64,000 nt of DNA, from assembly GCA_001567355.1 (NCBI GenBank), contig JYNZ01000003.1, positions 274,124 to 338,123 of the forward strand, given 5' to 3'. The notes beneath the pieces were generated by a model. It was not told the origin of the DNA and did not search any database. It worked only from the letters and a program-made list of their open reading frames with translations. This document shows, piece by piece, positions 44,701-48,619 of the stretch; the first letter of the stretch is position 1; every line of letters starts with the position of its first letter. Made by a program: the position numbers and the translations under genes. This DNA is from a candidate division WS6 bacterium OLB20. Lineage in GTDB: Bacteria > Patescibacteriota > Dojkabacteria > B142 > OLB20.

Positions 44701-46122
44701 ATGGGACTTTTTACCATGTACCAAAACAGAAAGCGTGTTCTCGGACTGAACGAACGCGGTCTCAGGTACATTCGAAAGTACAACAAACCCTCAGCTATAG
44801 AGATTGCAGACAACAAACTCAGCACAAAAGAGGTGCTGAACGCTGCTGATATCCCGACACCCAAGCTGATTGACGTGATTCCAGGCCAGGTGGCGTTTGA
44901 AAATTTTGACTGGACGCAGCTTCCGAAAAGCTTTGTGATGAAGCCGGTCATGGGTCTTGAGGGAGGCGGCATTGAACTCTTGTATAACAAAGACAAAGAG
45001 GGCCGCTGGATCAAAAGCGATAAAAGCAAGGTTGATGTCGACGATCTGAAACAGAAAGGCCGTGGCATCCTTGAAGGACGTTATTCACTGTATAACGCTC
45101 CTGATACCATCATGTTTGAGGAGCGCATCAAGCCGCATAAGAGCTTTAAATACTACACCTATAAGGGGACTCCGGATGTCAGAGTCATCGTGTTTAACAA
45201 GATCCCGGTAATGGCCATGCTGCGACTGCCTACACGCGAGTCTGAAGGCAAGGCTAATCTTGATAAGGGCGCCATCGGGGTCGGTATCGACATTGCCAAG
45301 GGTGCCACAACAAACGCGATCCAGGGTAAGGCGGGTGAGATAGAGTTTATTCCTGGCACCCGGCTTCGCGTCAGCGGTCTTAAGATCCCCTACTGGAACC
45401 AGATCCTTGAGTATGCCATCCGGGCCCAGGAGGCAACAGGACTCTACTTTGCCGGTATCGATTTTCTGATCGACCGCGACCAGGGTCCGGTCATTGTTGA
45501 AATGAACGCACGGCCGGGTCTCTCGATCCAGCTTGCTAACGAAGACGGTCTCAGGTGGCGTCTGGGCAAAGCGGCACACGTCAGGGTCAAGACACACGAC
45601 AAGGGCATCCGCCTGGCCAAGGACCTGTTTGGCGGAGAGATTGATGAAGAGATTGCCAGTGTATCAGGTAAGGAGGTAATCGGTATCTACGAGAATGTCT
45701 CACTGATAAATACAAACGGTCAGGAGTTGCAGACAAAGGCCAAAATCGATACCGGTGCCGACAGCACATCGGTAGACGTATCGCTTGCCCACCGGCTCGG
45801 CTATTCGGATCTGATTGAGCGCTGGAACGCACTTAACCTTCCTGCCGAAATTCCCCGCGAAGAAGGAAAACGCCTCGAAAAAGAACTTCAGGAGACGCTG
45901 GTCAACGAGATCGAAGAACTGGTCGATGTGCAGTACGTCAGGTCAAGCCATGGCAGCAGTCTGCGTCCGTATATCCGGCTCAACATGCGCATCAAGGACA
46001 CGCTGTTTGAAACCAAGGCATCGCTTTACGACCGCAGTAAACTCACCTACCCTGTCATTGTCGGCCGCAAGTCGCTGACCAGGTTTCTTGTTGATCCAAG
46101 CAAGCGCAGGACCTCAATATGA
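44701..46122 (+). CDS. alpha-L-glutamate-ligase-like (RimK-related) ATP-grasp enzyme fused to a C-terminal retropepsin-like aspartic peptidase domain
   Basis: ATP-grasp motifs (VMKPVMGLEGGGIEL, GIDFLIDRDQGPVIVEMNARPGL); C-terminal KAKIDTGADSTSVD matches the DTGA motif of the domain annotated as putative ATP-dependent zinc protease. Confidence 0.75.
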   Translation: MGLFTMYQNRKRVLGLNERGLRYIRKYNKPSAIEIADNKLSTKEVLNAADIPTPKLIDVIPGQVAFENFDWTQLPKSFVMKPVMGLEGGGIELLYNKDKEGRWIKSDKSKVDVDDLKQKGRGILEGRYSLYNAPDTIMFEERIKPHKSFKYYTYKGTPDVRVIVFNKIPVMAMLRLPTRESEGKANLDKGAIGVGIDIAKGATTNAIQGKAGEIEFIPGTRLRVSGLKIPYWNQILEYAIRAQEATGLYFAGIDFLIDRDQGPVIVEMNARPGLSIQLANEDGLRWRLGKAAHVRVKTHDKGIRLAKDLFGGEIDEEIASVSGKEVIGIYENVSLINTNGQELQTKAKIDTGADSTSVDVSLAHRLGYSDLIERWNALNLPAEIPREEGKRLEKELQETLVNEIEELVDVQYVRSSHGSSLRPYIRLNMRIKDTLFETKASLYDRSKLTYPVIVGRKSLTRFLVDPSKRRTSI

Positions 46123-47357
46123 GCAGCCATGTTCTTATTTTAGGAATACCGACAGCAGATCTTGTTGAAGACCTGAACAGAGCCGGATACCGTGTGTCAC
46201 TTATTGAAGATACACGCAAACTGCAGGAACATGAGTCTGTGTCAGGTTTCAGTCAGGTGATCAAAGCGGATTTTGACCGGTTTGATTCGGTGAGAGATGC
46301 AGTCGGTCAGCTGAACACTCCTGTTGATGCGGTAATCAGCCGCTACGAGAACTATACAGTTGCAAAGCAGCAGGTATGTGAACTGCTCGGGTTACCGACA
46401 GCCTCGGCAGACTCAATCCTAGCTTCAACCGATAAACTGCTGCAGCGGAAACGCTTTGCAGAATATGCACCAGAAATTACCCCTGCATTCACAAAGATCA
46501 CCAGCGTTGAAGAAGCACTATCATTTGCTGGAATTCATGGATATCCGCTGATCAGCAAACCGACCAACCTTGTAAAAAGTCTTCTCGTTAAGCGTTCTGA
46601 CACACCCGAGCAACTTGAACAGAATATTTCGGACACATTGCGTGAGATCTCAGGTCTGTATAACAAATACCGGGTGACCGGAAGAGAGAAAAACATTATT
46701 CTTGAACAGTATCTGGAGGGGAGTTTTCATTCTGTTGAATGTTTTATGGACAGTGACAGACACGTGCATTTTGCCCCATCAGCGGTTGATCTTGTCATGG
46801 GCCCTCAGATCGGCTTTAACGACAATTTCAACTATTCCCGGAAACTGCCTTCTGCCTTGTCGGCCGAAGAGACATCACTCCTGTTTGAGGCTGCTGGCAA
46901 AGCAATGAAAGCCCTTGATCTGGTCTACTTTGCCGGCCATGTCGAAGCAGTCATGACAGAGAACGGTCCGCGGATCATCGAGGTAAACTCACGGGTAGGC
47001 GGATACCGGAGCAGGATGTTTAACTGGACAAACGGTATCAACCTTAACCTTGCTGAGGCAACCGTCGCGATGGGTCAGAAACCGCAGCTTGACCCGGTTA
47101 AATCTGGTTTCTGTGCCGTCTATGAGGTATTTCCCAAAACACCAGGCACTGTGACAGAAATTACCGGTATAAAAGATCTCAGAGGCACATCAGCTGTCAG
47201 GTACATCTCTGTAAAAGCTGAACCAGGCGAATATGCCGGATTGTCGCGGGACGGCTACAAGGCTGCCTGTGTTATTATTATTCTTACTGAAGACAGCGGG
47301 GAATTCGATACATTCTGCGCACGCGTTGAAGATACAGTTCATGTTCTGACAAGCTGA
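46119..47357 (+). CDS. ATP-grasp ligase (L-amino-acid-ligase/PurK-like family)
   Basis: Pre-ATP-grasp N-domain then ILEQYLEGSFHSVECF and catalytic loop IIEVNSRVGGY; 4-nt overlap with upstream gene, 1-nt overlap (ATGA) with downstream Mur-ligase gene. Confidence 0.7.
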   Translation: MSSHVLILGIPTADLVEDLNRAGYRVSLIEDTRKLQEHESVSGFSQVIKADFDRFDSVRDAVGQLNTPVDAVISRYENYTVAKQQVCELLGLPTASADSILASTDKLLQRKRFAEYAPEITPAFTKITSVEEALSFAGIHGYPLISKPTNLVKSLLVKRSDTPEQLEQNISDTLREISGLYNKYRVTGREKNIILEQYLEGSFHSVECFMDSDRHVHFAPSAVDLVMGPQIGFNDNFNYSRKLPSALSAEETSLLFEAAGKAMKALDLVYFAGHVEAVMTENGPRIIEVNSRVGGYRSRMFNWTNGINLNLAEATVAMGQKPQLDPVKSGFCAVYEVFPKTPGTVTEITGIKDLRGTSAVRYISVKAEPGEYAGLSRDGYKAACVIIILTEDSGEFDTFCARVEDTVHVLTS

Positions 47358-48619
47358 TGCTCGACAGGATAACCCTGATAACAGGGACCAAAGGTAAAAC
47401 TATTGTCACCCATCTCACCGACTTTCTGCTGCGCAGTGCAGGTATAAACACAATGCGCGTTGACTCAACTGGCAGCTACTTCCGGGATATCCGTCAGACA
47501 GATTTTGATGACTCGCTGAAAAACTTCGGCTTCTCACCCAATATCTCTCCTGGCAGGTACATCTACTGGAACCTGAAACAGTCAGCCGAGCTCGGTGAAG
47601 AGCAGCTCTGGCCGGTACTTGAGTCATCACTTGGCAGTGCAAAACATGGCACAGGTCTCGACCGTTACGGCAGTCATTCAATCGGAATCCTGACAAATAT
47701 CTACAAGGACCACGTAAACCAGCGAACGATCCATAACGAGGAGGACATTTACGCGAAGAAATCATTCATTTTCAGAGAGTTGCGACCTGAGGGGCTGTTC
47801 ATTTCGACTCCGGATAATCCGTTCGGACGCCGTTCACTGCTGGAGCCCGTACTTGCAGAAAAGAACGCACGCAAGACCGGTGTAAGCCTGCAGGTAAACA
47901 ACTCCGAAGCCGAGCAGCTGCAGACAGAACTGGGTCTTGATGACCTGCTGTACGCCGACAGTGAAGCTTATTACAGTCTCAAATCCGGCAGACTGCTGAA
48001 CCGCAGTGAATTCCCCTATGATATGAACGGCCTGAATGAGGTCATGACCATGAATGCATTGTTTGCGCTTGCATCCGTACAGGAGCACATTGAAGTCAAA
48101 ACTGCCGCAACTGCGTTAAAAGGCTATCAGATCCCCGAATATTACGGCAGAATGGTCGTTTACAGACGGGGTGATCAGACTGTCGTGCTTGACTTTGCTC
48201 ATGAGATCGAGTCACTCTCAAGACTGACCATGCTGATTGAATCCTATCACGCGCGGAAGCCCTATCTGGTGGTTCGCGTGGGCTCAAGCAGAACTGACCA
48301 GTCAGTACGTGAGTTTGCAGAGAATTTCTCCGGCTTGACTTCAATAGCTGGAGCTACAGTTTACGATATTATTGATGGTGAGCATCTCAAGGCATACACA
48401 GGCAGGCATCTGCAGCGTAACACCGGTGAGACGGCAGATCTGGTGATTGAAACTATGAAAAACGCACAAACTGCATTTCCTGTCCATTCAGTACTGCGTG
48501 AACAGGAGGCATTGCAGGAGGCAGTCGCTGCAGGGCACCCCCTGATAATCCATATCCACCATTACCTGGACGAGACGGTCGCCCTCTTAAAGAGCCTCGG
48601 ATTCAAGCGGGTTCTCTAA
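47357..48619 (+). CDS. Mur-ligase-family amide ligase, resembles the C-terminal M domain of cyanophycin synthetase (also PgsB/CapB-like)
   Basis: P-loop LITGTKGKT followed by GINTMRVDSTGSY (compare CphA TGTNGKTT...VGYTTTDGVY), Mur-ligase NIYKDHVN motif. Confidence 0.7.
   Translation: MLDRITLITGTKGKTIVTHLTDFLLRSAGINTMRVDSTGSYFRDIRQTDFDDSLKNFGFSPNISPGRYIYWNLKQSAELGEEQLWPVLESSLGSAKHGTGLDRYGSHSIGILTNIYKDHVNQRTIHNEEDIYAKKSFIFRELRPEGLFISTPDNPFGRRSLLEPVLAEKNARKTGVSLQVNNSEAEQLQTELGLDDLLYADSEAYYSLKSGRLLNRSEFPYDMNGLNEVMTMNALFALASVQEHIEVKTAATALKGYQIPEYYGRMVVYRRGDQTVVLDFAHEIESLSRLTMLIESYHARKPYLVVRVGSSRTDQSVREFAENFSGLTSIAGATVYDIIDGEHLKAYTGRHLQRNTGETADLVIETMKNAQTAFPVHSVLREQEALQEAVAAGHPLIIHIHHYLDETVALLKSLGFKRVL

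Follow-up and report, generated by a model that had tools for sequence, protein, structure and literature searches.

Organisation of the gene cluster

We analysed a stretch of 64,000 nucleotides from the candidate division WS6 bacterium OLB20 (contig JYNZ01000003.1, positions 274,124 to 338,123 of the forward strand), here called the window, in which a free-standing Mur-type ligase is encoded among several ATP-grasp genes. The ligase gene is part of a six-gene cluster that extends over positions 44004–50792 of the window, with all genes on the + strand. The cluster begins with the gene of a seven-transmembrane (7TM) membrane protein (44004–44699), followed by a gene in which a RloC-like ATP-grasp is fused to a retropepsin domain (44701–46122), the gene of an ATP-grasp of the L-amino-acid ligase (LAL) type (412 aa, 46119–47357) and the gene of the Mur-type ligase itself (420 aa, 47357–48619). 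The last two genes encode ATP-grasps that resemble the G domain of cyanophycin synthetase (CphA): a frameshifted one, G1 (48775–49761), and an intact one, G2 (49761–50792). An earlier note on this DNA had placed a possible two-polypeptide enzyme at 46119–48619 and thereby covered only two of the six genes. Its reading of these two + strand open reading frames (ORFs) as an ATP-grasp and a Mur ligase held, since both gave Pfam matches above the cut-off (Mur_ligase_M with 40.3 bits for the ligase; the ATP-grasp is described below).

From the first to the last gene the junctions consist of a spacing of +1 nt, an ATGA, a TGATG, a gap of 155 nt and a TAATG. The fusion gene starts 1 nt past the stop codon of the 7TM gene. 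Its own stop codon forms an ATGA overlap (46119–46122) with the start of the LAL gene. At the following junction the LAL gene ends with AGC TGA and the Mur gene starts with ATG CTC, such that the TGA at 47355–47357 and the ATG at 47357–47359 share the single base A47357. The earlier note had described this overlap as ATGA. The overlap itself exists, but its sequence is TGATG, and the real ATGA lies one junction upstream. Finally, a TAATG at 49759–49763 couples the stop codon of G1 to the ATG of G2.

A strong terminator-like hairpin on the + strand at 43955–43981 (12-bp stem with 8 GC pairs), located 3' of rplL, is likely the upstream boundary of the cluster. Within the cluster (44004–50792) no terminator was predicted. 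A promoter-like site on the + strand (TAGACT-17-TATAAT, 10/12 matches), predicted solely by a consensus scan, lies at 43990–44018. Its -10 element ends at 44018 and thus inside the annotated 7TM ORF, such that translation may in fact begin at the next Met (44025). An independent Logan assembly was identical to the window (100%) over 21,263 bases.

At the downstream side a convergent mreB gene (50715–51719) overlaps with its 3' end the 3' end of G2 by 78 nt (50715–50792). Further downstream, at about 55400–56650, two tandem nucleoside diphosphate kinase genes are found beside a thymidylate kinase gene (18049–19292 in the corresponding locus L039), an arrangement that is kept in the related locus L045.

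Similarity of the Mur-type ligase to the CphA M domain

To characterize the ligase we compared it with models of the known Mur-type enzymes. Its best NCBIfam match was CphA (TIGR02068) with 94.2 bits over model positions 562–859, the cut-off of this model being 850. Against PRK14016 it reached 73.7 bits over positions 484–857. The MurE models followed with 39–41 bits (cut-offs 257–373), while CfbE, FolC and MurC/D/F gave 20–24 bits. The same ranking was obtained for all of 15 close homologues, for which CphA came first (E-values down to 1.2e-41) and MurE second at 2e-20. A family profile built from these 15 homologues matched the whole M domain of Synechocystis CphA1 from the PDB (residues 484–868) with 103 bits, compared to 52 bits for the best MurE and a weak match of 30 bits for MurT.

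Comparison at the level of structure was less clear-cut. The AF2 model of the ligase (pLDDT 92.6, pTM 0.91) had the two-domain fold of the Mur middle and C-terminal domains. A Foldseek search with this model retrieved CphA1 chains first (TM-score 0.74–0.76, E ~1e-21), with MurE at 0.62–0.66. Judged by profile similarity the ligase is CphA-M-like, and judged by its predicted fold it is MurE-like. The CphA M domain has itself been described as MurE-like in fold (PMC9427784).

A phylogeny of the ligase had been suggested in the earlier note. We calculated a neighbour-joining tree from 144 trimmed Mur-ligase modules (395 columns, 200 bootstraps), which included the stand-alone relatives of the ligase, CphA M domains, MurC/D/E/F and FolC from E. 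coli as well as CapB from B. anthracis. The stand-alone family formed a clade of 101 sequences with 55% support, and within it the subclade of 27 sequences that contains the ligase of the window had a support of 90%. The deep nodes, and with them the placement of the family relative to CphA, MurC–F, FolC and CapB, were unresolved; the CphA group draws in MurF.

The earlier note had also offered a PgsB/CapB-like enzyme as identity of the ligase. It would then be a poly-gamma-glutamate synthetase or, in a related version, a FolC-like gamma-glutamyl ligase that acts on a cofactor. Both PgsB and FolC are Mur-superfamily amide ligases acting on glutamate. In addition, the RimK-family enzymes MptN and CofF cap the glutamate tails of cofactors, and neighbouring genes match these two weakly (NCBIfam). 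However, no PgsB/CapB-named NCBIfam model matched the ligase (E≤0.01) or any of the 15 relatives (E≤0.001), and genes resembling pgsC or pgsA are absent among the neighbours. The FolC model TIGR01499 gave only 24.4 bits at a cut-off of 162.65. In the alignment the family excludes CapB of B. anthracis and FolC of E. coli; both differ in signature residues and CapB also at the position of K135. By its model scores and architecture the ligase is clearly neither PgsB, FolC nor a canonical MurC–F, and we rejected these identities. A function of the PgsB or FolC kind is extremely improbable.

A further option is an atypical cell-wall enzyme, i.e. a truncated MurE/MurF-like or a MurT-like ligase that acts on a peptidoglycan precursor such as the stem peptide of lipid II. 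The NCBI label of the protein is MurE, the cluster is adjoined by mreB, and the Pseudomonas Rlo system, to which part of the cluster is related (see below), alters cell shape and ampicillin sensitivity (PMC12239564). MurE is also the second-best sequence match, and its reaction places an amine on a terminal acidic residue at the side-chain carboxylate. The protein nonetheless has only about 5–9 residues ahead of the P-loop (9 if counted to the glycine G10), and it therefore lacks the N-terminal UDP-MurNAc-binding domain of MurC–F. Its scores of 39–41 bits against MurE lie well under cut-offs of at least 257, MurT matches weakly and a GatD-like glutaminase is missing next to the gene. Instead of the mur, mra or fts genes of a cell-wall gene cluster, genes of ATP-grasp ligases and peptidases surround it. 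We regard a role of the ligase in peptidoglycan synthesis as very improbable.

The residues of the active site are kept in the ligase. They comprise the P-loop G10–T15, E89, N114, D118-H119, K135, R265, D279 and H282, of which K14, T15, E89 and D118-H119 are conserved in 88–100% of the stand-alone family members. With CphA1 the ligase shares a catalytic set of P-loop Lys/Thr, Glu, Asn, Asp-His, Lys and Arg. K14, T15 and E89 are the equivalents of K499, T500 and E558 in TeCphA1 (PMC9427784). D118-H119 align with D585/H586 of SuCphA1, whose mutation inactivates the M domain (PMC9262961). The column of K135 holds Lys in E. coli MurD/E/F and FolC and Phe in MurC and CapB.

Next to this common set the family carries features of its own. 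The P-loop of the ligase reads GTKGKT compared to GTNGKT in CphA. A loop with the pattern SPNVxPGRY (residues 60–68), which holds a near-invariant Arg/Lys, is inserted in the stand-alone family, while the corresponding columns are entirely gaps in 31 CphA M domains. The stand-alone family furthermore has DYAHE where the CphA M domain has DYAHN, and it possesses R307, which is absent from the 31 CphA M domains. Since these features are missing from the 31 CphA M domains, the ligase is not a fragment of a broken cphA. The earlier note had seen a CphA-like signature directly after the P-loop. This applies only loosely, as profile residues 7–52 align to SuCphA1 residues 484–529 with 21.7 bits, but the GTKGKT motif and the inserted loop depart from CphA.

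Companion ATP-grasps, retropepsin domain and 7TM protein

The ATP-grasp whose gene overlaps the ligase gene was expected from the earlier note to take the part of the CphA G domain. It matched ATP-grasp_4 (PF13535, 48.6 bits, cut-off 27) together with LAL_C2 (PF18603, 30.8 bits, cut-off 29.4). Its best relatives of solved structure were BacD/YwfE with 38.7 bits, followed by the LAL enzyme BL00235, with which it shares this domain architecture. No CphA model of NCBIfam matched it at E≤0.01. On these matches the protein is an L-amino-acid-ligase-type ATP-grasp and not CphA-G-like. Of the proposed split CphA-like pair, the CphA-M-like nature of the ligase and its linkage to ATP-grasps are therefore retained, while the overlapping ATP-grasp as G domain is not.

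Proteins close to the G domain are instead encoded on the other side of the ligase gene. G2 reached 214.1 bits against TIGR02068 over positions 207–473 and 122.9 bits against the TeCphA1 G domain. In TeCphA1 the residues R309, R323, N394, S396 and R458 bind the primer carboxylate and the Asp substrate, and G2 keeps all of their equivalents (R147, R161, N228, S230 and R286). As the wider GshAB/CphA group of ATP-grasps typically has these residues too, they are not specific for Asp. The G domain of SuCphA1 depends on H267 (PMC9262961), the equivalent of which is Gly105 in G2 and also a Gly in G1 as read from the G1/G2 alignment. At its C-terminus G2 carries an extension of about 35 aa that is absent from its orthologs.

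G1 matched TIGR02068 with 108.9 bits over its first 215 aa (positions 167–338) and is the ortholog of a G gene that is conserved in related clusters. Its coding sequence is distributed over three segments in the frames starting at 48775, 49400 and 49531, which implies a pair of frameshifts that compensate each other at a distance of about 130 nt, the first one at or beside a run of six A (49399–49404). Both the window and the Logan assembly contain the frameshifts. As all three segments still align to the orthologs, G1 is either a very recent pseudogene or carries a sequence error shared by the assemblies.

These genes could be taken as parts of a literally split cyanophycin synthetase, in which G2 polymerises Asp and the M-like ligase adds Arg to each beta-carboxylate. 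Several of the above observations agree with it: the 214 bits of G2 on the CphA model, the retained substrate-binding residues, and the M-like ligase with its intact catalytic residues. An ATP-grasp and a Mur-type ligase are encoded together as in CphA1, a single chain of N, G and M domains (PDB 7LG5, 7WAC), to whose M domain the ligase and to whose G domain G1 and G2 are most similar. Moreover, pipelines of the Joint Genome Institute (JGI) call relatives of the ligase cyanophycin synthetase. In CphA the N domain (about residues 1–160) anchors the polymer and makes primers. In the cluster no ORF aligned to CphA model positions below 165, and G2 has only about 50 residues ahead of its ATP-grasp. 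The cluster also differs from CphA1 in distributing its activities over separate polypeptides with M before G, in G-like proteins without an H267 equivalent, and in a ligase with GTKGKT, SPNVxPGRY, DYAHE and R307. It contains extra ATP-grasps (RloC-like and LAL) as well as a retropepsin domain and a 7TM protein. The 94 and 214 bits of ligase and G2 compare with an equivalog cut-off of 850, and the binding residues kept in G2 occur in the wider GshAB/CphA group. Outside the cluster the window contains no additional gene of a Mur ligase or an ATP-grasp; cyanophycinase was not among the targets of the search. Because of the missing N domain, the separate chains, the absent H267 equivalent, the low scores and the different signature residues, the cluster falls outside CphA. 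We consider the literal split synthetase improbable, also in view of the gene neighbourhoods described below.

The first two genes of the cluster relate it to the Rlo system. The 7TM protein matched 7TM_transglut (PF14402) with 47 bits (cut-off 25) over profile positions 55–247. Its match to the NCBIfam RloB model was limited to positions 314–507 of 508 (41.9 bits, cut-off 900), such that it resembles the C-terminal 7TM part of RloB without the transglutaminase domain. In the fusion protein the ATP-grasp occupies approximately residues 10–291 and the retropepsin domain approximately residues 320–471. The former, of a type named alpha-L-glutamate ligase-like, gave 205.7 bits with ATPgrasp_ST (PF14397) and 255.8 bits with TIGR02291 (cut-off 314.2). 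The latter is RimB/RloA-like, with 43.7 bits for PF05618 and 50.4 bits for RloA3, and contains a DTGA motif (IDTGADSTS in the translation). The scores for PF14402, PF14397 and PF05618 thus all exceeded the Pfam cut-offs in genes that are adjacent or fused.

Family members and their gene neighbourhoods

A profile search of 1.84 billion representative sequences yielded about 110 free-standing proteins (clusters at 50% identity) of approximately 400–440 aa that outrank the first full-length CphA (E ~1e-35). A search seeded from one distant member added 433 further clusters at 90% identity, labelled mostly Saccharibacteria or Saccharimonadales. In scans of genome and metagenome collections for the GTKGKT pattern, which also fits ordinary Firmicutes Mur ligases, we found at least three and at least six true relatives, respectively, among the matches listed. 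The family is large and common in genomes of the Patescibacteria or candidate phyla radiation (CPR). Databases name its members 'Mur ligase family protein' or, at JGI, 'cyanophycin synthetase'; the latter label is attached to many Saccharibacteria stand-alone ligases of about 425 aa (P0190, P0195, P0199 and others). No experimental work on the family was found in the searchable literature.

Two unusual arrangements were seen among the relatives. One protein of 972 aa (P0113) contains two tandem ligase modules with P-loops at residues 19 and 588. On one contig of a metagenome-assembled genome (L001) two paralogous ligase genes overlap (6706–7980 and 7977–9242) with no ATP-grasp gene nearby. The proteins of the family are mostly basic, with a median isoelectric point of about 9.1–9.3 compared to 5.6 for CphA M domains. 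We rejected this as a sign of an acidic substrate, given that the ligase of the window has a value of 6.0 and CPR proteomes are lysine-rich in general.

To see which genes accompany the ligase we inspected 19 distinct loci that encode a family member, a small and non-random sample. An ATP-grasp gene adjoins the ligase gene in 15 of the 19 loci. It is of the RimK/RloC/G type in 12 and of the LAL type in 5 loci, with both types present in two. A peptidase occurs in 11 loci (RimB-like in 8, MATCAP in 3) and the 7TM protein in 7. G-like genes adjoin the ligase in only 5 of the 19 loci. The steadiest partners are RimK/RloC-type ligases and peptidases of the poly-Glu-cleaving type, which speaks further against a split CphA.

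Close relatives keep the members of the cluster but shuffle their order. L045 is syntenic with the window except for the LAL gene, its order being 7TM, ATPgrasp_ST-RimB fusion, Mur, RimK-like, G and then mreB. In L069 the order is 7TM, ATPgrasp_ST-RimB, G, RimK-like, Mur and then mreB. L040 has Mur convergent with RimK-like, ATPgrasp_ST-RimB and 7TM genes. L046 and L070 have Mur beside MATCAP, ATPgrasp_ST and 7TM, and in L071 Mur and LAL are followed by MATCAP, ATPgrasp_ST and 7TM. L041–L043 contain an LAL and Mur pair with no other ATP-grasp. The distant members L049, L051 and L052 form overlapping Mur-RimB-RimK operons, whose RimK scored 307–323 bits against the S6-glutamate ligase model.

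In three of these loci a MATCAP-family peptidase (PF08014) takes the place of the RimB-like retropepsin (L046 9336–10304, L070 8423–9403, L071 4683–5540), and its gene adjoins those of 7TM and ATPgrasp_ST. The trimming enzyme seems to have been exchanged here for a non-homologous one. Furthermore, a DUF192 gene is consistently located 3' of RimB-RimK in CPR loci (L051 10663–11145, L072 4590–5153, L073 2675–3172), which suggests that the RimK module of CPR has DUF192 as a fourth conserved part.

The LAL gene allows for another reading of the locus. The LAL enzyme would join two free L-amino acids to a dipeptide, and the Mur-type ligase would link either this dipeptide or another, third amino acid to the carboxylate of an acceptor, which would yield a small peptide metabolite and not a polymer. 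This is exactly how, as is well established, the ATP-grasp Ddl feeds the Mur ligase MurF by supplying D-Ala-D-Ala, and the order of an ATP-grasp followed by a Mur ligase recalls this pair. The LAL gene is of the BacD/L-amino-acid ligase type, and LAL and Mur genes are adjacent in five loci from different branches and in both orders (the window, L041/42, L043, L071 and L050), among which the pair in L041–L043 stands alone. The likeness of the LAL protein to BacD amounts, however, to only about 38 bits, and 14 of the 19 Mur loci have no adjacent LAL gene. Nor is the pairing reciprocal: the two closest LAL homologues on long contigs (L072 and L073, about 35% identity) have no Mur ligase nearby and adjoin instead RimB-RimK-DUF192 and a GT4 glycosyltransferase. 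Since the LAL homologues do without Mur in both of these loci, LAL and Mur are not an obligate two-chain enzyme. By this reciprocal test the common denominator of Mur and LAL is the RimK/RloC-type ATP-grasp with a trimming peptidase rather than one another. We hold the dipeptide route to be unlikely.

The GT4 gene directly follows or overlaps the LAL homologue (9231–10241 in L072, 5892–6920 in L073) and is divergent from RimB-RimK, which is a hint that the product in these genomes may be glycosylated or linked to a sugar.

A possible system for peptide or poly-amino-acid assembly

We propose a general model in which the translationally coupled cluster encodes a multi-polypeptide system for the assembly of a peptide or poly-amino-acid. 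The ATP-grasps would extend an acidic chain and the Mur-type ligase, as a catalytically competent free-standing two-domain enzyme, would decorate a carboxylate of this chain. By analogy, the logic of CphA with an ATP-grasp for the backbone and a Mur ligase for the branch would be distributed over separate chains and grafted onto a system of the Rlo or RimK-RimB type. The model is derived from the domain identities, the intact active sites, the tight gene coupling and the recurrent co-location, and we give it as a whole about even chances. The product is probably a branched peptide or poly-amino-acid rather than cyanophycin.

Some background on the enzyme families supports the individual steps. 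RimK adds alpha-linked Glu at a C-terminus and also makes poly-alpha-Glu, while RimB removes alpha-Glu. MurE and the CphA M domain couple an amine to a C-terminal acidic residue via its side-chain carboxylate. RimB and RloA cleave poly-Glu, and RloA cleaves RimB substrates (PMC12239564). Loss of RloB or RloC suppresses the loss of RloA, which places both in the RloA pathway and indicates that RloB and RloC make something that RloA must process (PMC12239564).

In the proposed mechanism the RimK/RloC/G-type ATP-grasps would build or extend an alpha-linked acidic peptide, which may be poly-Glu- or poly-Asp-like and either free or located on a protein C-terminus. The Mur-type ligase would phosphorylate a carboxylate of the chain with ATP and attach an amine, probably that of an amino acid. 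The most economical target would be the side chain of the terminal acidic residue. The LAL enzyme may add a further residue or supply a dipeptide, the retropepsin domain may trim the product, and the 7TM protein may tether the machinery to the membrane or export the product.

A number of points weigh against this assembly model. In the neighbour-joining analysis only 22 of 200 replicates (11%) grouped the stand-alone family with CphA to the exclusion of the six reference ligases. Four of the 19 loci have no ATP-grasp adjacent to the ligase (L001, L002, L044 and L003, which ends at a contig edge). The G-type partner that is conserved elsewhere is disrupted in this genome, such that the system may be altered or decaying here. 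With its own signature residues (K12, the inserted loop with R67, E283 and R307), the family may act on a substrate unlike any known one. What the ligase acts on and at which site it does so is purely inferred, and all sequences stem from metagenome assemblies, from which everything was read.

A more far-reaching version of the assembly model can be formulated for the whole group. A free-standing ligase of the CphA-M/MurE type would be widespread among the Patescibacteria/CPR, Saccharibacteria and WS6/Dojkabacteria included, and would act together with RimK- or RloC-type glutamate ligases. It would place amino acids onto the gamma-carboxylates of alpha-polyglutamate, either as free polymer or as a RimK-built tail on a protein, for instance ribosomal protein S6. 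Separate polypeptides would in this way make a new branched, cyanophycin-like poly-amino-acid or branched protein tail, to be trimmed by RimB-like or MATCAP peptidases and, in clusters of the WS6 type, handled by the 7TM protein. The family would then represent the unfused state before the assembly of CphA-type enzymes. We put this version forward as a conjecture that is rather doubtful.

Relation to known systems and implications

The cluster combines known enzyme families in an undescribed, recurrent manner. Within our incomplete coverage of the literature we found no paper on a Mur-type ligase together with RimK/RimB or Rlo systems or on a split CphA. The amidoligase survey of Iyer et al. 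2009 reportedly describes a system of 7TM protein, ATP-grasp and peptidase.

RimK-RimB consists of the poly-alpha-glutamate ligase of ribosomal protein S6 and a retropepsin-like trimming protease. The same Mur family occurs in the overlapping Mur-RimB-RimK operons, and the window contains a RimK-related TIGR02291-type ATP-grasp fused to a RimB-like domain with the DTGA motif. The ATP-grasp of the window is, however, RloC-like and not a true RimK, and the protease is fused to the ligase. With RloABC of P. aeruginosa (PMC12239564) the cluster shares the combination of 7TM_transglut, an ATPgrasp_ST/TIGR02291 ATP-grasp and a retropepsin-like peptidase. In contrast to RloABC, the 7TM protein of the window lacks the periplasmic inactive transglutaminase domain, and the peptidase is the C-terminal domain of a cytoplasmic ATP-grasp with no separate signal peptide. 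Some relatives of the cluster use a MATCAP-family peptidase, and the Mur ligase, the LAL enzyme and the G-like ATP-grasps are additions in the window. RloB has been reported to be 96% proteobacterial (PMC12239564), whereas the organism studied here belongs to the CPR.

The annotation of the family is inconsistent, with MurE given by NCBI for the protein of the window and cyanophycin synthetase by JGI for many relatives. This may concern for instance a preprint in which cyanophycin synthesis in metagenome-assembled genomes of Saccharimonadia was inferred from CphA annotation (10.64898/2026.09.16.751625), possibly but not necessarily of the stand-alone family. Should the Saccharimonadia proteins be M-like ligases that stand alone and lack the G and N domains, the inference of cyanophycin is unsafe. 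The recurrent linkage to RimK/RimB and Rlo-type genes leads to a concrete hypothesis on what these poorly understood systems make. If it is true, the few non-ribosomal poly-amino-acids known so far would be joined by a branched acidic peptide or polymer, and the family would be informative on the way in which ATP-grasp and Mur-ligase modules were combined into CphA.

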